A stretch of 55,430 nt of DNA from Alphaproteobacteria bacterium (GTDB taxonomy: Bacteria; Pseudomonadota; Alphaproteobacteria; Rs-D84), in assembly GCA_009783855.1 (NCBI GenBank), contig WRCO01000003.1, positions 1-55,430 on the forward strand, read 5' to 3'. Shown here in pieces: positions 291 to 54,294 of this stretch. Position 1 is the stretch's first letter; each line of letters begins with the position of its first letter. Made by a program: the position numbers and the translations under genes. A model generated the notes under the pieces. The model was given only the letters and a program-made list of their open reading frames with translations. It did no database searches and was not told the origin of the DNA.

Positions 291-1121
291 ATGGGCAAAA
301 ATGCAGTACAATTATTTGAAAACAAACAAATCAGGACTCTATGGGATGAAACTGCTGAAAAGTGGTGGTTTTCGGTTGTGGACATCGTGGCAGTCTTGAC
401 TGAAAGCGTCGATTCTACAGCATATTGGCGGAAACTAAAACAACGTCTGAAAGAAGAAGGAAATGAAACCGTGACAAATTGTCACGGTTTGAAAATGACT
501 GCTCCGGACGGAAAAATGCGCTTGACCGATGTTGCAGATACGGAACAAATTCTGCGCCTGGTTCAATCTATTCCCAGTAAAAAAGCCGAGCCGTTTAAGC
601 TTTGGTTGGCTAGAGTCGGGTCTGAACGTATCGATGAAACTATTGACCCAGAACTTGCCATAAACCGTGCCATGCATGCCTACAAGAAACTTGGGTATTC
701 CGAAAACTGGATAAACCAACGCCTTAAGTCCATAGAAGTCCGTAAGTCATTAACAGACGAATGGGATAAGTCCGGAGTCAAGAAAGGTAAGGAATATGCA
801 GAATTGACTGACCTTATGATCCAAATCTAGTGAGGTAGCGACACGCGAGAATATAAGAAATTTAAAGGCTTGAGAAAGGAAAATTTGCGCGACAATATGA
901 CCAATACGGAATTAGTTCTGAATATGTTGGCTGAAGTTGCCGCTACGGATGTGTCTCAACTTCGCCAACCAAAAGATTTTGATGAAAGTATTGATGCTGC
1001 CGCTGAGGGAGCAAAGGCCGCACTCGCCGCCCGCCGTCAAATCGAACGCAGTACCGGCAAGACCCCAATAACTCGTCTCAATGCTAAAAGCATCGGCACA
1101 AAAAAGATAGTCAAAAAATAA
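291..1121 (+). pseudogene. Bro-N / phage antirepressor-type protein, split by tandem in-frame stops
   Basis: ORFs 291..830 and 870..1121 share a frame. Only TAG-TGA (828-833) interrupts ...LTDLMIQI**GSDTREYKKFKGLRKENLRDNM..., matching the family's typical 'KAWSGMTTREYKKLKGLKKENLRDNM' segment. The N-terminus (QIRTLWDE..KWWFSVVDIV) is Bro-N-like. Confidence 0.8.
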
Positions 1122-1149
1122 AATGCGTAAGTGGGTTGTAGGGGAGTTT

Positions 1150-3492
1150 TTATATGAACCTATTTATCACTTCAAGCTTTGTTTCTGGAAGTCTATTAAT
1201 TTCAGGTTTGAATGATATTCCATTTTCATCAATTTGATTAACATATCCTTTCAGCCATTCGATATTTTCAAAACTGAACCCATACCTAGTTAGCCATATC
1301 TCAAGTGGGTCATTTGTTCCATATTTTATATAGTTTTTCATTATTTCTGCTCGTTTATCTTCGGTCTTTTCATAATACTGATGAAAAGCGCCGGATAATG
1401 GGGTTGCGAGTGAAAAATATATTACTTTATCCAAGTAGTCATATGTATCGAATACTAATATGTCATATTTAAAATCTGATAGATGCGAATTGGTCGGAAA
1501 TATAGAAACAAGGTTCTTAAATCCCTTATTTGGCAACTGAGTTGCAATTTGAGAAAATTTTAGGATTATGGAGTCTAATTGCGCTTGTTGCTCATTGGAA
1601 TCAATACGCCTTTCCTTATATTCTTTTTCTATATTACGCTGGTCATCTCTCTTCGTAATATAGGCATATCTATTCGCTAGAATAGCTTTAAATGAGCGTC
1701 CTTGTATGAGCCAAAGCAAGATTTGTATGCTCGTGCTCAACACTGCCTTTTCTCCTTTTGTTAATTCATTGCGCCTTAAATGCGCCGAATATATGTTCTC
1801 AAAGGCTTCCTTTATTCGTATTTTGGATGTTAGGCTAAGCTTGTTATATTATTGCCACTTAAGTGGTAAATTATTTGATAGCAAATTATCTAGGATATAT
1901 TGAATATCAGCGTCAATATCGGCGTTTTTCATTCGCTCGATTTGAATTTCTGGCATCATATATTCATCATTGAAAGTATCCTTCTGTATTGCTTCCACAA
2001 CATCCTGCAAATCCTCTTCGATAGTTTCAACTTTTTTGTTTAGTTCCGATTCTTCGTTTAATTTTGCTATTTTCTTCAGTCTCTCTGAAAAGCTTTTTAT
2101 ATGACTATCTGGAATAATCACATATCCGTAATCAAAAGACTGGTTAAGCGAAGTCCTTCCAGCTCTACCGATGAGATTTTTCAAGCCTATTACTTTATCT
2201 GTTTCAGAACCATTAAATTGGAATTTATCAATCCACACCATATCAAATGGCATATTAATACCTTGAATCAAGGTTGAGGTAGCAAAACAAATTTTTGCGA
2301 AACCGAGTTTTACAAATTTTTCTATTAACAGTCTTCCGTATAATGGAATAGAGCCATGATGAATAACAATACCTCGTTTCATCATATCTATCATGACGGA
2401 TGGAGCATTCTCTTCTGCGCCAATAAAATCTCTAAATTCTTCTATTATTTTTAGAGCATCCGCATCTATAATTTTTGGGCACAATTCTATGTATTTCTTG
2501 AATTTCTCTAAACATGACCCATTATAAATATTTTCTTTCGAAATATACACCAATAATGTAGTTCCATCGGTCTTTAATTTCTCATAAATTATATCGGATG
2601 TCTCTGGAATTTTATCAAATAACTTTTCCGATTCAAATGGAGAGAAATATGATAATTTATCGTCTTTTAATGACATATAAATTTTTCCAACACTTTGTTG
2701 GTTATATAAAAACTTTCCGGTGTCAGTATTTATATTGTGTTTTATAAACTGAGCTTCTGGGTTTTCAATAAATGGGTGTGCAAAAATCTTTTTAGAATCT
2801 GGGAAATGCGTATTTATGCGCCTAACCAAGGCATCAAATAGCATTCCCCGCATATATTCTTCTGCGATTTGGGCTTCATCAAATAAGAAAAGCTCAATAT
2901 TGAATCTATTTTTCAACTTGAATAGCTCTCTTGCTCTTTCAGGGGTCACGACAAATATACGTCGATTAGTATTCGTTTTGTTTATGTCATCAATAAATTG
3001 TAAAACCAAAACATCTTTATCAACAACTCTTGTGATTTCTAAGATATACTCGGTTATCAAAGCTCGTGATGGGACAACGACAACCACGTCATTTTTCGCA
3101 TTGGTTATTAGATATCTGAATAAATATGATTTACCAACGCTTGTTGGGGCAGAGAAAGAAAAGAATTTATGTTTTTTGATATGCTCTAATATATCGGCTT
3201 GTATGGGAGTAAAATTTTCTTGGGTTTCATTTTTTATGACATCTGCGTAAACTTGATAACAGGCTTCAAAAAATGATTCTGGATCTTTAGTTTTATAGAA
3301 TAACCCTAAAACATAAAGAAGTTCGTTTTCTTGTTCAGCAAATAATGTCTGATGAAATGATTTAATATAAGATAATTTTTCTAACTGTTGTATGTCAATT
3401 GCCCCATTCTCATGGATGTCCATAATAATACTTGCCATAAGTTGTCTTATGGCATCAGAATCTTTTGAAGACAGTATCTCTTTAATTAACAA
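1150..3492 (-). pseudogene. DEAD/DEAH (Ski2-like) SF2 helicase, HamB-like, split by one in-frame TAA
   Basis: Motifs APTSVGKS, FDEAQ, HHGSIP, ATSTLIQGINMP and NLIGRAGR are present. ORFs 1849..3492 and 1150..1743 share a frame, and the frame stays open after TAA 1849-1851 (PLKWQ*YNKLSLTSKIRIKEAF...), giving ~780 codons in total. Confidence 0.8.
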
Positions 3493-4183
3493 ATTCTATC
3501 CCCACAATATATATTTCTGGATATTTCAATAACTCACTAAATTTCGGACTAGCGATTACATTATCAAATATCTCATTGTAATTTTTGTTATGGACGGAAA
3601 ATGCAATAGTAAATGCCTTTGATTTATCCGGAAATGTTGAAATGTTGCTTTTAGTTTTATCGCCAATCCATTTATCTAAGTCAGGCAGCTCCTTAATATC
3701 TTTTTTGTTCTCAATAAATTTAACGATTTGATTGATAGCTATGGTGTGCGATGACTGATTTTTATTATATTTTGCTTCCCCAAATGCAATAAAGTTGGTT
3801 GGAGTCTCTGTGTGAAAGTCAAATCCAGGATTTCCACGTTTCTTCTCTTTCCATAATTCAGCCAGTGGAATTTTGTTATGACGGTGATGTCCTACAAGCA
3901 AATCTTGCGCCTGTGTTGATACTATTATTTCACCTAAGTCTCCTGAAATTGGATTAACAACATTGGTTAGAATTCCCGATACGATTTTTGCTATCGTCTC
4001 TTTGGCACGAGCTTCATAGCCCAATTTTGCCATAATGTCTAGGCTGTTTATCCAACTAGTATCAGATATGCTTTTTTGTATCTTTGTGGCCAACTTTGCT
4101 ACATCAGAAACTTGGGCATGAATAAAAGAAATCGTGCAATTATCTTGCACTTTTTGTTGTGTCTGATGGATATTTAGGCACAC
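3482..4183 (-). CDS. PD-(D/E)xK nuclease-like protein, HamA (DUF1837)-like
   Basis: GDLGE...GFDF...FGEAKY motif pattern. It overlaps the helicase start, and AGGAG precedes the GTG start. Confidence 0.65.
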   Translation of the reverse strand: MCLNIHQTQQKVQDNCTISFIHAQVSDVAKLATKIQKSISDTSWINSLDIMAKLGYEARAKETIAKIVSGILTNVVNPISGDLGEIIVSTQAQDLLVGHHRHNKIPLAELWKEKKRGNPGFDFHTETPTNFIAFGEAKYNKNQSSHTIAINQIVKFIENKKDIKELPDLDKWIGDKTKSNISTFPDKSKAFTIAFSVHNKNYNEIFDNVIASPKFSELLKYPEIYIVGIEFVN

Positions 4184-10206: not shown

Positions 10207-10231
10207 TATGTTTCCTTTTTCATTTTATCCG

Positions 10232-10256
10232 TTGTCCTTACTACTATAAGGGACAA
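10232..10256. repeat. Palindrome variant copy 3 (TTGTCCTTACTACTATAAGGGACAA)
   Basis: Upstream of paralog 3; GTTGTTA/GCTGTTA array at 10261-10282. Confidence 0.6.
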
Positions 10257-10284
10257 GCCAGTTGTTAGCTGTTAGTTAGCTTAT

Positions 10285-13392: not shown

Positions 13393-13410
13393 TGTCTACT
13401 ATAGTAGACA
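13393..13410. repeat. 18-bp perfect palindrome copy 4 (TGTCTACTATAGTAGACA)
   Basis: Upstream of paralog 5; period-7 array at 13412-13460. Confidence 0.9.
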
Positions 13411-13446
13411 ACTGTTAACTACGGCCCGTTGCCTGCTAACTACTGG

Positions 13447-14535: not shown

Positions 14536-14554
14536 AATATTCCCTTATGTTTGT

Positions 14555-14572
14555 TGTCTACTATAGTAGACA
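14555..14572. repeat. 18-bp perfect palindrome copy 5
   Basis: Upstream of paralog 6; period-7 array at 14581-14625. Confidence 0.9.
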
Positions 14573-14622
14573 TCTTTTTTATAATTGCCAATCACTGGTC
14601 GCTGATTACTGGTAACTGATAA

Positions 14623-15360
14623 CTACACCCCAAGATACGCTTCCTGTACTTGTTTGTTTTTTAATACCGTCGCGGGCTTTCCGGCCGCAAGCAATTGCCC
14701 GTGGTCAAGCACGATGATGTTATCACACAACCGGCGGATAAGTCCGATATTATGTTCGATAATCACAAGTGTTTTGCCCATGCCGCGAAGTTCGGAAAGT
14801 AATTCGACAATCTGTTCTATTACCGCGGGAAATAATCCCGTAAAAGGTTCGTCCAAAAGATAGACATCCGCATCCTGAATCATCGCGCGGCCAAGTTCCA
14901 AAAGCTTGCGCTGACCATACGAAAGCGATTCCGCCAAATCGTCCCGATGTTCGGACAGATGGATTTTTTTCAAAATAACCTCAACACGATGCAGGGGCGT
15001 GCCGCGTGCGCCCATAAATTCGCAAAGACCTGAAACTATTCCCGTATTCGCAATCGCAAGCAAAAGATTGTCGCGAACAGACATTTGATTTACCAATCGC
15101 CCGTCTTGGAAAGTCCGCGCGATTTTAAGCCCGCGCAATGCCGTCGGCTCAATCTGTTCGAATTTTTCGCCGCCGATAATAATTTCTCCGCAATCCGGCA
15201 CAAGCGTTCCGGTAAAAAGGTTCATAAGCGTGGTCTTGCCACTTCCGTTCGGTCCGATAAGTCCCGTGGCGACGCCCACAGGAATTGCAACGGACAGCCC
15301 GTCAACCGCGCGCAGCCCGCCGAAAGTTTTTGTTAAATGTTTTACTTCAATTGCGTTCAT
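14623..15360 (-). CDS. livG: Branched-chain amino acid ABC ATP-binding protein (LivG-like)
   Basis: FGGLRAVDGLS, GPNGSGKTT, ARTFQ, LSYGQRKLLELGRA, VQEAYLG. Confidence 0.88.
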   Translation of the reverse strand: MNAIEVKHLTKTFGGLRAVDGLSVAIPVGVATGLIGPNGSGKTTLMNLFTGTLVPDCGEIIIGGEKFEQIEPTALRGLKIARTFQDGRLVNQMSVRDNLLLAIANTGIVSGLCEFMGARGTPLHRVEVILKKIHLSEHRDDLAESLSYGQRKLLELGRAMIQDADVYLLDEPFTGLFPAVIEQIVELLSELRGMGKTLVIIEHNIGLIRRLCDNIIVLDHGQLLAAGKPATVLKNKQVQEAYLGV

Positions 15361-26348: not shown

Positions 26349-26435
26349 TTTCAGTGTGAAGTGTGAAGTTGTGGTTGTCGGCGAAGCCGACGCCACAACT
26401 TCACACTGAAAAAACGCGCCTTTCGGCGCGTTTTT
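26349..26435. terminator. Long heptamer-containing hairpin followed by terminator hairpin
   Basis: TTTCAGTGTGAAGTGTGAAGTTGTGG..GTCGGC-GAA-GCCGAC..CCACAACTTCACACTGAAA, then CGCGCC-TTTC-GGCGCG flanked by A/T runs. Confidence 0.7.
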
Positions 26436-28250: not shown

Positions 28251-28400
28251 CGGAAAAAATGACAAGCCGCTTATCAAAGCGTCGCGACTTCAAGGACGTA
28301 TTTAAGCCGGAATAAAAGCTGTTGGATAAATCGGAATATTTTCCGGTGCGTTGCGAACGGCGCCTTGGCACAGCATGGCTGTCTTCCTTCCCGGCCTTTG
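28251..28400 (-). ncRNA. ssrS: 6S RNA-like rod-shaped ncRNA (candidate)
   Basis: The 5' CGGGAAGGAAGACAGCC pairs with the 3' GGCTTGTCATTTTTTCCG. It contains GTTCGCAA and CTTGAA words shared with E. coli 6S, a single-stranded bubble, and a TTGGAA-17-TATAAC promoter at 28407-28435. No ORF here. Confidence 0.55.
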
Positions 28401-28462
28401 TTGCAAGTTATATCATAAAATGGTTTGTTTTCCAAATATCATTGTGATATAATGTCGGTGAT

Positions 28463-28828
28463 ATGAAATTCGCGCCATTTTATTTTCTGTTTGCTTTTTG
28501 CATGCTGCCGATTGTTGCGGCGGGCGAATGGCTTCCGGGATTTGAAGACGTCCCGATGATGGATAAAACGTATGTCGTCGAAGAAGAAAGCTTTGTGTAC
28601 TCTTTGGCCGAGGGTAAAATTGTACAGGCGACGGTTATAAGCGACCACGTGTCGCGCCGCCAATTGCAAAGGTTTTACAGCGATGCGCTGCGCGAACTTG
28701 GATGGCGCCGGACGCGAGATACGCGCGCGCTTCAGACTTTTACGCGCGGCAGCGAAGAATTGAACATAGAGATAATAGAATCCGACCCGCTTACGGTGGG
28801 CTTCACGCTTACGCCGATTGGGGATTGA
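28463..28828 (+). CDS. Conserved alphaproteobacterial-type secreted hypothetical protein
   Basis: Signal peptide then WLPGFEDVPMM...FYSDALRELGW. Confidence 0.75.
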   Translation: MKFAPFYFLFAFCMLPIVAAGEWLPGFEDVPMMDKTYVVEEESFVYSLAEGKIVQATVISDHVSRRQLQRFYSDALRELGWRRTRDTRALQTFTRGSEELNIEIIESDPLTVGFTLTPIGD

Positions 28829-28829
28829 T

Positions 28830-29237
28830 AACTAACAACTAACAGCTAACAACTAACAACCTGGTACAGGCGGGTTGTTTTTGCTTGTTCTTATCGTTGA
28901 TGATATTAATTTCACAAGCTCTTTGCAATCCGAATAGATGCTCTCAAACTGTTTCTCTGAAATAAATTCGAGGTTAAGCCAGTACAAGGTCTCCTCGCAT
29001 TCTTTGAATGCAATATGAAATTTAGCTATGAAATCTTTTCTGCTGCTTGCACAGTATGCTTCGGACAAGTTGGCGCCGATACTTGTGCCGGAACGAATGA
29101 CTTGCTTTGATATTACAAACTCTTTCTTTATCTCGCCCAAATATTTGCACATCTTCACGATTCTTGCCGCGAACAAAGCAGATTTTTGCAAAATGGGTTT
29201 GTCTTTCATATAAGCTGTTAGCTGTTAGCTGTTAGTT
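28830..29237. mobile_element. Four-helix-bundle cassette bracketed by inverted heptamer arrays
   Basis: The left arm (AACTAAC/AGCTAAC)x4 at 28830-28860 is the reverse complement of the right arm (GCTGTTA)x3+GTT at 29214-29237. Confidence 0.55.
28853..29209 (-). CDS. Four helix bundle protein (TIGR02436 / 23S-IVP-like)
   Basis: KSALFAARIVK, KQVIRSGTSIGANLSEA, SRKDFIAKFHIAFKECEETLYWL. Confidence 0.92.
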   Translation of the reverse strand: MKDKPILQKSALFAARIVKMCKYLGEIKKEFVISKQVIRSGTSIGANLSEAYCASSRKDFIAKFHIAFKECEETLYWLNLEFISEKQFESIYSDCKELVKLISSTIRTSKNNPPVPGC

Positions 29238-30582
29238 CAAGCACCCGCGCCGGAACATCCTTCATCGCCATGCGCTCTTGCGCCATGGTGTCGCGGTGGC
29301 GCAACGTCACCGTGCCGTCTTCCAAAGTCTGATGGTCGACCGTGATGCAGACCGGTGTTCCGATTTCATCGTGGCGGCGGTAATTCTTTCCTATGTTGCC
29401 GCTGTTTTCCATTTCGATGCGGCCAATATGAAGCTTTCGCAAATCCGCGACCAAATCGCCGGCGCGGCCGACCAATTCCGGCACATTGCGGGCAAGCGGT
29501 ATCACGGCGGCTTTAACAGGCGCAAGCCGCGGTTTTAATTTCAAGACAACGCGCGATTTTTCATCACCCAAATCTTCGTCCGTGTACGCTTCGCACATTA
29601 CCGCGAACATGGTGCGGTTTGTGCCCAATGCCGTTTCGATGACAAAGGGTATAAAACTTTCGCCCGTCTGCGGGTCGCTGTAAGACAGTTTCATCGTGCT
29701 GTCTTTATTATCCATCACCTTTGCTTTTATATCGAATTCGCTTTGCGATTTCGTATGGCTGCCCAAATCGTAGTCGGTGCGGCTGTGAATTCCTTCGACT
29801 TCGTCGAAACCGTCCGGGAATTCATATTCGATGTCTTCGGCGGCGGCGGCATAGAATACCAGTTTTTCATGCGGCAAAAAGCGCAAGCGTTCCGCCGGTA
29901 TGCCAAGTTCGTCAATCCACCACCGCATGCGCGCGGCTTTCCATTCTTGGAATTGTTCTTCTTCTTCGCCGGGTTTTACAAAATATTGCAATTCGGCCTG
30001 TTCGAATTCGCGCATGCGGAACACGAATCCGCGGGGCGAGATTTCATTGCGAAACACCCGGCCGATTTGCGCGATTCCAAAAGGAAGCTTGTGCGGCACG
30101 GCGTCCAGGATATTTTTGAAATTGGTATATGTCGTCGTCGCGGTTTCGTTGCGCAGGTATGCGTTTATTTCGCCGTCCGAAGTCGCGCCGACGGACAATC
30201 CCATCATAAGGTGGAACGCCCGCGGCTCGGTCAAATCTGCAGAGCCGCAGGTATCGCATTTCGTCTGGTCCGCCATCTTATCCTGACGCATGCGAAGTTT
30301 GCATTTCTTGCATTCGACCAACAGGTCGGAAAAGCTTGCCTCGTGCCCGCTGTATTTCCACATCAGGCGGTTGGTAAGCTGTGCGGCGTCAAGGCCTTCG
30401 ATATCGTCGCGCTGATACACCATTGTGTTCCACCAGGATTCGCGGATATTCTTCATCAATTCGACGCCATAGGGGCCGTAATCGTAAGTCCCGCCAAGCC
30501 CTCCATAGATTTCAGACCCCGGGAATATAAACCCGCGGCGCTTGCAAAGTGAAATCACGTCGTTGACATTTTTGGCTGGCAT
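29218..30582 (-). CDS. glyQS: Glycine--tRNA ligase, single-subunit alpha2 type
   Basis: CKRRGFIFPGSEIYGG, YLRNETA, RMREFEQAELQYF, IGKNYRRHDEIGTP. Confidence 0.95.
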   Translation of the reverse strand: MPAKNVNDVISLCKRRGFIFPGSEIYGGLGGTYDYGPYGVELMKNIRESWWNTMVYQRDDIEGLDAAQLTNRLMWKYSGHEASFSDLLVECKKCKLRMRQDKMADQTKCDTCGSADLTEPRAFHLMMGLSVGATSDGEINAYLRNETATTTYTNFKNILDAVPHKLPFGIAQIGRVFRNEISPRGFVFRMREFEQAELQYFVKPGEEEEQFQEWKAARMRWWIDELGIPAERLRFLPHEKLVFYAAAAEDIEYEFPDGFDEVEGIHSRTDYDLGSHTKSQSEFDIKAKVMDNKDSTMKLSYSDPQTGESFIPFVIETALGTNRTMFAVMCEAYTDEDLGDEKSRVVLKLKPRLAPVKAAVIPLARNVPELVGRAGDLVADLRKLHIGRIEMENSGNIGKNYRRHDEIGTPVCITVDHQTLEDGTVTLRHRDTMAQERMAMKDVPARVLELTANS

Positions 30583-35201: not shown

Positions 35202-35220
35202 CTCGCCCGCATTATAAAGC

Positions 35221-35248
35221 GAAAAGCGAAAAGTGAAAAGCGAAAAGT
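35221..35248. repeat. Heptamer tandem array (GAAAAGC/GAAAAGT)x4
   Basis: Directly visible between divergent genes. Confidence 0.85.
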
Positions 35249-45852: not shown

Positions 45853-45976
45853 GTTTTGTCCTTTCTTTTGTGTCAGTGGCGGGGATTATAACAATATTTG
45901 ATTTGAATTCAATCTTAAAATTTAAGCTTTTGTTTTTTGTTTTCTTGTCTATAATTCAATTACGGACCACGGATAA

Positions 45977-48037
<2,061 letters not shown>

Positions 48038-48072
48038 TTGTTAGCTGTCAGTTTTTATGCTATAATATCCGC

Positions 48073-51943: not shown

Positions 51944-52097
51944 GGTGGTTGGTGCCTGGTGATTCGTGGCTGGTGTTGGTGGCTCGTAGGGGCGCAAAGC
52001 ATACGTCCCCATTGTTGTCCACTATAGTGGACAACTTTTAACTGATTACGGACCACCAGCACAGGCGACGAATCACCAGCACCAGCCACCAGTAACA
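51944..52097. repeat. ~150-bp imperfect inverted repeat centred on palindrome copy 6 (52016-52033)
   Basis: Left GGTGGTT/GGTGCCT/GGTGATT heptamers mirror the right CACCAGC arm; core GTTGTCCACTATAGTGGACAAC; GTAGGGGCG REP at 51986-52010. Confidence 0.8.
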
Positions 52098-54195: not shown

Positions 54196-54223
54196 TGGTG
54201 GCTGGTGGTTGGGGACTCGTAAT

Positions 54224-54294
54224 TAAAGGTTGTCCACTATAGTGGACAACCTTTATTTCATGCGTTAATTAATGATTGTCTAATATATTAGACA
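54224..54294. repeat. Palindrome copies 7 and 8 between convergent lysS and smpB
   Basis: 32-bp perfect palindrome at 54224-54255 and TGTCTAATATATTAGACA at 54277-54294, flanked by heptamer arms. Confidence 0.9.

Follow-up and report, generated by a model that had tools for sequence, protein, structure and literature searches.

A 55,430-nt stretch of DNA from a gut-derived, uncultured alphaproteobacterium (contig WRCO01000003.1; hereafter, the window) contains, at positions 28830-29237, a small gene of the PF05635/TIGR02436 four-helix-bundle family that is enclosed between two inverted arrays of heptamers, one of which also encodes the end of the adjacent gene, glyQS. The locus raises the question of why a protein gene should be bracketed by such arms, and of whether gene and arms form a single element. 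We consider it probable, at roughly 0.6, that 28830-29237 is a selfish, horizontally moving cassette made up of the PF05635/TIGR02436 gene and terminal inverted arrays of about four to five heptamers.

The arms, the bundle gene, and related insertions

The cassette is approximately 410 bp long, and its arm unit is CTAACAR. A repeat search identified inverted arms at 28830-28854 and 29213-29237 (25 nt, 92% complementary, 358 nt apart), and Tandem Repeats Finder identified the corresponding period-7 arrays at 28830-28860 (4.4 copies) and 29213-29235 (3.3 copies, 100% matches). A 21-mer arm pattern, with up to three mismatches allowed, matches the window five times, against an expectation of 0.00 from 100 shuffles. 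The full arms measure 27 nt upstream and 31 nt downstream of the gene, and the upstream array ends at 29211-29213, which leaves a gap of 1-3 nt to the ATG at 29209. When the minus strand of 28815-29255 is folded as RNA, the arms form a single unbroken stem that encloses the entire open reading frame (ORF), with an energy of -126.9 kcal/mol (z = -4.9) that none of 100 shuffles equals; the two mismatches between the arms in DNA are G-U pairs in the sense RNA. An earlier interpretation made from the letters of the window (the sequence-only reading) had proposed that the arms can pair into a stem looping out the gene, and the 25-nt arms and the continuous stem of the predicted fold bear this out. 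It had also proposed that the arms encode the termini of the neighboring genes, which is correct for glyQS and for the stop of the bundle gene itself (TAG, 28853-28855). The glycyl-tRNA synthetase (GlyRS) ends in VLELTANS, and the codons L-T-A-N-S-stop (29235-29218) plus two bases of the preceding GAA codon are arm sequence. The convergent ORF on the other side, on the other hand, has its stop at 28826-28828, one base short of the downstream arm, so its terminus abuts the arm and is not encoded by it. Stops in the window arms close all three reading frames.

The closest relatives of the bundle protein (68-86% identity) are found in other termite-gut Alphaproteobacteria at three different sites (Table 1), at all of which the arms read AACTAAC AACTAAC AGCTAAC AACT ... 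AGTTGTT AGTTGTT AGCTGTT AGTT. In a DNA alignment of the four cassettes, the similarity is bounded exactly by the outer arm ends and the flanks are unrelated; the upstream arm of the window aligns with the arms of the three other cassettes minus 14 nt, i.e., two units. Between the window copy and the one that follows a pseudouridine synthase gene (L102), the proportion of synonymous differences is 0.74 (saturated), the nonsynonymous divergence is 0.09, and dN/dS is about 0.03, which indicates strong purifying selection on the bundle protein. The arms of these two copies are nearly identical, far above the neutral expectation, though synonymous sites are saturated. These alignments show arms and ORF to travel together, with the arms evidently marking the exact ends of the element.

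The host side of the locus is consistent with an insertion. In 18 loci from other species, glyQS has no cassette and its product ends in EIVNG or EIING, after which a terminator hairpin follows. The closest GlyRS relatives are those of termite-gut metagenome-assembled genomes (MAGs), at about 86-87% identity at best, and nucleotide similarity to the closest relative glyQS ends at the GAA codon where the arm starts; the arm therefore took the place of the native last four codons of glyQS, its stop, and its terminator. The bundle ORF has a GC content of 39%, compared with 50-53% in the flanks. The exact window protein was found on four contigs from several metagenome samples, and at the three loci retrieved its gene follows a 454-aa glyQS at a distance of 8 nt; this glyQS is complete at two of the loci. 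As judged by these comparisons, the cassette is shown to have landed between the convergent glyQS and 121-aa ORF, an arm now supplying the C-terminus and stop of glyQS. The proposal of a mobile cassette resembling the intervening sequences (IVSs) of rRNA is supported by arms and ORF at three other sites, homology that ends at the arms, the low GC content, and the cassette-free glyQS relatives, all of which point to horizontal acquisition of the window element.

The bundle ORF matches PF05635 with an E value of 4.6e-23 (81.9 bits, cut-off 33.8) and TIGR02436 with an E value of 2.5e-26 (92 bits, cut-off 24). Its predicted structure (AF2, pLDDT 93.5) has four helices at residues 5-26, 31-52, 57-78, and 85-111. 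Foldseek matched it to 2RLD (BT_0352; 53% identity, TM 0.83-0.93), an entry of five chains, to 2GSC (Xcc0516; TM about 0.8), and to the Avd structures 4DWL (TM 0.71-0.84, 11-12% identity) and 8UB7. The resemblance of the family to Avd of diversity-generating retroelements (DGRs), which the sequence-only reading had mentioned, is seen in the fold. The same reading had remarked that the last interhelix loop looks about 4 aa short, and the alignments agree: four residues (LKDT-like) between WLNL and EFISEK are present in 33 of 33 aligned relatives and absent from the window protein, the deletion falling where helix 3 ends and the last loop begins. It is the sole departure from the family pattern, as the polar motif R-S-G-T-S-I-G-A-N-x-x-E is intact and 19 of 19 invariant columns are kept.

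The cassette is probably transcribed by read-through from glyQS and not from a promoter of its own, given that none stands out in a sequence scan and that cassettes tend to share the orientation of their neighbors (see below). No obvious Shine-Dalgarno sequence was seen at the start of the bundle ORF; since the ATG lies 8 nt past the glyQS stop, translational coupling to glyQS may occur. Profile searches with the convergent 121-aa ORF gave no family match; the gene calls on two independent metagenome contigs with the same locus (L019 and L020) include it. A terminator-like hairpin with a T-run at 28855-28879 (+), just inside the cassette and antisense to the end of the bundle gene, could end the transcript of the convergent ORF; such matches are no commoner than in shuffles. 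No RNA family of Rfam was matched in 28300-29700.

Table 1. Features of the cassette locus, related insertions, and elements with the same unit elsewhere in the window
Feature	Position	Strand	Description
Upstream (5') arm	29211-29237	-	Gene strand: AACTAAC AGCTAAC AGCTAAC AGCT; supplies the last five codons of glyQS and TAA
Downstream (3') arm	28830-28860	-	+ strand: AACTAAC AACTAAC AGCTAAC AACTAAC AAC; includes the bundle gene stop
Four-helix-bundle gene	28853-29209	-	118 aa, PF05635/TIGR02436; ATG 8 nt past the glyQS stop
12-nt in-frame deletion site	28967-28972	-	Between Leu80 and Glu81; visible in protein and DNA alignments
glyQS, single-chain glycyl-tRNA synthetase	29218-30582	-	Pfam tRNA-synt_2b and HGTP_anticodon; host gene upstream of the cassette
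Convergent 121-aa ORF	28463-28828	+	Signal-peptide-like N-terminus; host gene next to the downstream arm
L102 cassette			Follows a pseudouridine synthase gene, the stop of which is likewise within the arm
L104/L103 cassettes			Before an S4/pseudouridine synthase gene
L022/L105 cassettes			Before ftsW
ORF-less mini-element	47976-48053	+	Arm unit of the cassette (AACAACTAACAACT ... AGTTGTTAGCTGTCAGTT); 3' end of ligA
Solo short array	10258-10277	-	Cassette unit (AACTAACAGCTAACAACTGG); between two co-directional genes, beside a palindrome

Heptamer arms across the PF05635 family

Two sets of loci were drawn from species representatives. The first (L022-L101) comprises the 80 best matches to the window protein, from Bacteroidota, Clostridia, Cyanobacteria, Acidobacteriota, Verrucomicrobiota, Myxococcota, Proteobacteria, and others; the second (L264-L343) comprises the 80 best matches of the classical Xcc0516-like subfamily, the query being a 61-residue Xcc0516 stretch from a PDB alignment that is approximately 14% identical to the window protein. 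Tandem arrays were counted if perfect and no shorter than 2.5 copies, and were called near if they lie within 150 nt of the gene ends. Arm detection was ungapped, gene starts were predicted mechanically, and the control for inverted arms paired upstream and downstream regions across different loci. In the first set, 69 period-7 arrays lie near the gene (2.54/kb), compared with 25 in the far flanks (0.089/kb), i.e., a 28-fold difference, and periods of 5, 6, and 8-12 occur 0-1 times near the gene. Inverted arms with a score of at least 14 are present at 57 of 79 loci (72%; control, 3%), and 61% of loci reach a score of at least 18 (control, 0.4%). The second set served as an independent replication: period-7 arrays amount to 1.81/kb near the gene and 0.09/kb in the flanks (20-fold), and inverted arms are present at 45 of 74 loci (61%; control, 1.9%). 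The sequence-only reading had named a lack of such arms in other copies of the family among the findings that would refute it; the arms are clearly there, at frequencies of 72% and 61% against 2-3% in the controls.

The units of the first set vary by locus and usually consist of an AATT-like self-complementary core (AATT, AATG/CATT, AGTT/AACT, or AGCT) with three variable bases, and those of the second set are mostly GTGAnnn or GGGAATn. Arm lengths in the first set have a median of 33 nt (interquartile range, 31-36 nt) and a mode of five units on both sides, with a median stem of 31 bp; in the second set the median is 28-29 nt and the mode is four units. Protein identity co-varies with unit identity (rho = -0.23), a value that 0 of 500 permutations reach. 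No fixed register between heptamers and ATG was found across loci, and some arrays run into the start codon. A few loci of the second set have octamer arrays in place of heptamers. At L315, L317, and L332, inverted octamer arrays (e.g., AGCCACGA x4) flank the gene, and these arms match the octanucleotide class 1 paired sites of Geobacter metallireducens.

The family ORFs are richer in AT than their flanks in 78 of the 80 first-set loci, by a mean of 10.6 points. Neighboring genes are mostly co-directional with the family gene (59 of 71 upstream and 52 of 65 downstream in the first set), and in 19 of 41 loci the arm contains the stop of the upstream ORF, while in 10 more the stop precedes the arm by no more than 15 nt. 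Arms also accompany 13 of the 22 copies on viral contigs; the arm-less viral copies were considered as possible DGR Avd genes, a notion rejected since no reverse transcriptase (RT) was seen beside them. The window cassette fits the class, with arrays on both sides that are inverted and close to the start and stop, an AT-rich ORF, and a sense orientation between host genes. It is an ordinary member, possibly degraded slightly, given its 4-aa deletion and shortened arm.

Some cassettes are located beside stable RNA genes. An Rfam search of 12 related loci found no rRNA, only tRNAs. At L064 (2362-2446) and L082 (2533-2612), armed cassettes are separated by 10-20 nt from tRNA genes of the same direction, inside stable-RNA transcription units, a placement that recalls that of rRNA IVSs. 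The L064 locus, which belongs to an Opitutales MAG, has dense AATTAGG/CCTAATT arrays in both orientations at 800-2000 together with octamer runs of CACAAAGG. At approximately 1781-1880, a truncated classical-type four-helix-bundle ORF followed by an arm lies directly upstream of the tRNA gene and the intact armed cassette, and the region from 800 to 2000 looks like a graveyard or hotspot of such cassettes. Far arrays with the unit of the local cassette (11 of 22 identical; control, 2.4%) were examined as evidence of targets in trans and rejected; they are not counted as clean evidence because at least some are arms of neighboring degenerate cassettes, as in L064.

Across phyla, the armed PF05635 class appears to be undescribed. 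The open-access literature, to which the search extended (subscription-only papers were not searchable), yielded no paper that links PF05635/TIGR02436 in general with flanking inverted heptamer arrays.

Possible roles of the arms and competing explanations

In the transcript, the arms would pair into a 25-bp stem with the ORF in its loop, long enough for RNase III, as in the Coxiella IVS. Arms of four to five units are most likely putative binding sites of the pentameric protein encoded by the cassette, at about one heptamer per protomer and on either RNA or DNA; such binding would serve the spread of the cassette, expression control (autoregulation), or both. The arms seem to be more than a stem, since their sequence, 7-nt period, and length of four to five units are kept while the synonymous sites of the ORF are saturated. 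That they are binding sites of the protein is made likely by the conserved arms, the pentameric nature of the family, and the way in which Avd grips an RNA stem-loop with five protomers.

Several observations weigh against the selfish-cassette reading, or against parts of it. No consistent target-site duplication is found across the four insertions in the DNA alignment, and no transposase, recombinase, or RT is present in or near the cassette, the neighbors being glyQS, ferredoxin, Bax1-I, Lgt, DUF5131, lipoate ligase, and unknowns; an enzyme that acts in trans from another genomic location is possible. We know of no catalytic activity in the four-helix-bundle family, and the binding of the arms by the protein is wholly inferred. 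The sequence-only reading had called for empty-site alleles in relatives: the glyQS genes of other species are indeed cassette-free, but GlyRS scans of genome and metagenome collections found no empty site above 86-87% identity; the insertion itself is therefore something that we infer and do not see. Furthermore, 28-39% of the family loci have no detectable arms. Selection for a stem in the sense RNA would be expected to favor G-U over A-C mismatches; 34 and 35, respectively, were counted, and this candidate was rejected, the lack of a G-U excess giving no pointer to pairing selected in the sense RNA specifically. A role of the arms as selected three-frame stop devices was likewise rejected, as closure is 51% upstream and 31% downstream, compared with 52% and 28% in phase-permuted controls. 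The window copy itself may be partly disabled, in view of its 4-aa deletion and shortened upstream arm.

In one alternative the protein does not recognize the arms: these would count just as a long double-stranded stem for RNase III processing or stability that excises the ORF from host transcripts, as happens in rRNA, and the period would be a by-product of slippage. The 25-bp stem is indeed perfect in the sense RNA when its two G-U pairs are counted (fold z of -4.9), the median stem of 31 bp is sufficient for RNase III, cassettes lie in sense orientation in operons and also beside tRNA genes (L064 and L082), and RNase III cleaves the heptamer-bearing stem of the Coxiella IVS (PMC4990558). 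However, a stem requires pairing and not a given sequence, whereas the sequence, period, and unit number of the arms are all conserved despite synonymous saturation; arm lengths are peaked, unlike those of slippage-like solo arrays; and G-U shows no bias over A-C. We therefore regard this explanation as unlikely, though it deserves to be taken seriously.

The arrays that occur apart from the family gene bear on a second alternative, in which some other factor (an enzyme not yet known or a nucleoid or regulatory protein like that proposed for Geobacter) makes, spreads, or uses heptamer arrays and hairpins and the bundle gene is cargo that tends to finish in the loop, much as IVSs occupy the loops of rRNA hairpins. 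At least 119 species-representative genomes, among them many of cyanobacteria and Bacteroidota, carry the arm sequence represented by the 17-mer AACTAACAGCTAACAAC, and the neighbor search, which included a relaxed hidden Markov model and a motif screen for the classical subfamily, found a family gene within 8 kb in 1 of the 119. This also counts against our preferred reading: heptamer arrays largely exist alone, another factor may make or use them, and solo arrays of the arm unit were discarded as markers of nearby family genes, as 1 of 119 qualifies. An inverted partner is present at 19 of the at least 119 loci, mostly less than 115 nt away, and solo arrays of the window unit have a decaying length distribution with a mode of three units and a tail to 24. 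ORF-less hairpins with the same or other units exist as well, at L128 and at 47976-48053 and 51944-52096 in the window, and in G. metallireducens pairs of heptanucleotide sites, separated by about 100 nt, are found between the genes of operons (PMC2700814). Against these observations stand the co-inheritance of arms and ORF at four different sites through saturated synonymous divergence, the strong association in the direction from gene to arms in two distant subfamilies, and the lack of significant ORF similarity in the ORF-less loops, which leaves neither direction of descent shown. We find the cargo explanation distinctly improbable.

An ORF-less hairpin with full arms in the closest relative genome (L128, 6249-6345) is homologous to the mini-element at 47976-48053 of the window (alignment score 68). 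The predicted hairpin of the latter is weak (z = -0.12), and its left arm, loop, and the start of its right arm encode the last approximately 20 residues of LigA, past the BRCT domain, and the TAG stop. The idea that ORF-less hairpins are deletion derivatives of the cassette was rejected, as the similarity between loop and ORF does not exceed that of shuffles. Such elements fit an autonomous/nonautonomous pair like that of REP-associated tyrosine transposases (RAYTs) and repetitive extragenic palindromic (REP) sequences, and they fit equally well the model with another factor and the gene as cargo.

Two further explanations may be set aside. If the locus were a contingency (phase-variation) locus, gain or loss of units would shift the frame of the glyQS end or the spacing to the bundle ATG and thereby switch expression; the window upstream arm has two units fewer than those of related cassettes and Coxiella strains differ by one unit (PMC4990558), but every arm frame meets a stop within a few codons, so that unit changes barely affect glyQS, the tight constraint on arm length is contrary to what a hypervariable tract would show, and the exact protein recurs on four contigs with the same 8-nt spacing to a 454-aa glyQS (complete in two cases) at the three loci retrieved, which makes this very improbable. 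That a resident gene merely adjoins a chance or generic hairpin, the inverted repeat being a bidirectional terminator between convergent genes, is scarcely credible despite the terminator hairpins that directly follow glyQS in relatives and the terminator-like hairpin with T-run at 28855-28879 (+), itself no commoner than in shuffles, since the arms surround the whole gene instead of trailing it, their pattern has a chance expectation of 0.00, relatives at other sites have the same arms, and 61-72% of family loci (controls, 2-3%) have arms of this kind.

The window contains other arrays and repeats. At 51944-52096, ORF-less inverted heptamer-like arrays of the form GGTGnnn ... nnnCACC have 33-nt arms that are 82% complementary and 58 nt apart, and their loop contains the palindrome TTGTCCACTATAGTGGACAA. 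A 20-nt palindrome, TTGTCYACTATAGTRGACAA, occurs at least four times (13393-13412, 14553-14572, 52014-52035, and 54221-54258), with a variant at approximately 10228-10256. Three of these five sites, the variant included, adjoin or lie inside the heptamer arrays at 14594-14624, 51944-52096, and 10258-10277, and the palindrome may be an operator or a second repeat family tied to the arrays. Three direct heptamer arrays on the 5' side of housekeeping genes have units that differ from that of the cassette: ACGGATA units at 45962-45985 run up to the ATG of ligA (45986), AAAGCGA x4.6 at 35216-35247 is located in a divergent intergenic region, 44 nt before leuS, and ACTGGTA/ACTGATA units at 14594-14624, which contain TAACTGA, extend over the stop of an ABC ATPase gene and lie ahead of a gene for a periplasmic-binding protein. 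Within the ligA frame, CGCCTTG x5 at 46452-46486 encodes the loop just before the conserved LEIRGEVY motif of the adenylation domain. A terminator-like hairpin at 26353-26415, between two minus-strand genes, has a 5' arm made up of AGTGTGA x2.4 and is followed by an A-run. The region 1001-4000 is AT-rich (GC content of 32-36%, compared with about 50% elsewhere) and is possibly another imported segment.

In a wider reading, the PF05635 pentamer would be the sequence-specific partner of heptamer arrays, at about one heptamer per protomer, and the family would form a two-component system with the arrays and hairpins dispersed in the same genomes. We put this forward tentatively and do not regard it as the likelier outcome. 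The role of a factor acting in trans on the arrays, which the sequence-only reading had suggested for the protein, is compatible with the same-unit arrays of the window and with arms of four to five units, but most solo arrays of this unit have no family gene within 8 kb. If the two-component reading is true, armed cassettes would be autonomous copies, and ORF-less hairpins and solo arrays would be nonautonomous relatives or regulatory targets. It would take in the short tandemly repeated repetitive (STRR) sequences of cyanobacteria, the TAACTGA repeats, and the Geobacter "global regulator sites", would be comparable to RAYT/REP or a repeat-reading ring protein, and would give a function to both the "IVS protein" family and the bacterial heptamer repeats.

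These questions concern a large family (18,485 clusters at 50% identity). Crystal structures of PF05635/TIGR02436 proteins have been available since 2006-2007, and to our knowledge no function has been assigned outside DGR Avd. Heptamer repeats of cyanobacteria, Beggiatoaceae, Bacteroidota, and Geobacter have been reported repeatedly without explanation, and the arms tie the two puzzles together, inasmuch as a majority of the family genes sampled from two distant subfamilies have inverted heptamer arrays of constrained length on both sides. Gene and arms appear to move jointly into operons, tRNA-adjacent sites, viral contigs, and, according to the literature, 23S rRNA. Culturable carriers (Xanthomonas and Bacteroides, the latter including B. 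oleiciplenus YIT 12058 with locus L081) make the link testable. There is also a consequence for annotation, as cassettes rewrite the 3' ends of housekeeping genes; in the window, repeat elements supply the coding sequence for the C-terminal ends of GlyQS and LigA alike.

Comparison with known systems

The closest parallel is that with IVSs of 23S rRNA. The IVS of Coxiella burnetii is a 428-nt element regarded as selfish, with a 28-bp terminal stem and two to three tandem heptamers (GACAGAT) directly upstream of the S23p ATG; the number of heptamers differs between strains by one unit, and RNase III cuts the stem at the first heptamer repeat (PMC4990558). A terminal stem, heptamers upstream of the S23p ORF, and cleavage by RNase III are thus combined in a known IVS, in agreement with the likeness to rRNA IVSs that had been proposed for the window. 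As in the window, the 23S IVSs of Coxiella and Leptospira have an ORF of the PF05635 family that is looped out by a long stem of terminal inverted repeats, and the Shine-Dalgarno sequence is weak or absent. They differ in position, as IVSs lie in helix 45, 25, or 9 of 23S rRNA, whereas the window cassette lies between protein genes at the 3' end of an mRNA, and in that the window arms also provide the C-terminus and stop of a host protein. RNase III cleavage is established for the Coxiella IVS and is hypothetical for the window cassette.

Avd shares the four-helix-bundle fold of the window protein (4DWL and 8UB7) and belongs to the same pentameric family, whose homology to Avd has been noted (PMC10053308); a pentamer is also cited for 2GSC (PMC4990558). 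In the Avd pentamer, each of the five protomers touches an RNA stem-loop, and the residues involved are the same from one protomer to the next (bioRxiv 10.1101/2023.10.23.563531). Unlike an Avd gene, the window gene encodes a protein of only about 12% identity to Avd and has no RT, template repeat, or variable repeat nearby. Family genes have also been described as scattered inside cas operons (PMC3936711).

The arms resemble the STRR sequences of cyanobacteria, the TAACTGA repeats, and the Geobacter repeats in being tandem heptamers of two to six copies that are intergenic and often precede a start codon or overlap an ORF end. In Beggiatoaceae, cyanobacteria, and Bacteroidetes, TAACTGA repeats are located for the most part immediately 5' of start codons (PMC4679880). 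In G. metallireducens, paired heptanucleotide or octanucleotide sites on opposite strands between operon genes, with an AATTCTG-like unit, were read as binding sites of global regulators that were not known (PMC2700814). These reports describe arrays without an enclosed gene and without a link to PF05635, whereas the window arrays are the two ends of a gene cassette. The cassette also resembles RAYT/REP systems, including REP doublets (REPINs), and pairs of a miniature inverted-repeat transposable element (MITE) and an autonomous element, in which a small gene lies between inverted short repeats and the repeat is also dispersed, including as inverted pairs that lack an ORF. RAYT, however, is a HUH tyrosine transposase of known chemistry, whereas the bundle protein has no known catalytic motif, and REP is an imperfect palindrome of approximately 35 nt and not a set of tandem heptamers.

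For the proposed reading of repeats by the pentamer, the nearest analogies are of another kind. The trp RNA-binding attenuation protein (TRAP), on the trp leader, and the distal face of Hfq each present an oligomeric ring that takes up one short RNA repeat per protomer. Arms of four to five heptamers would suit a pentamer in the same manner; the analogy is one of mechanism alone, as neither TRAP nor Hfq has kinship with the bundle protein in sequence or fold.

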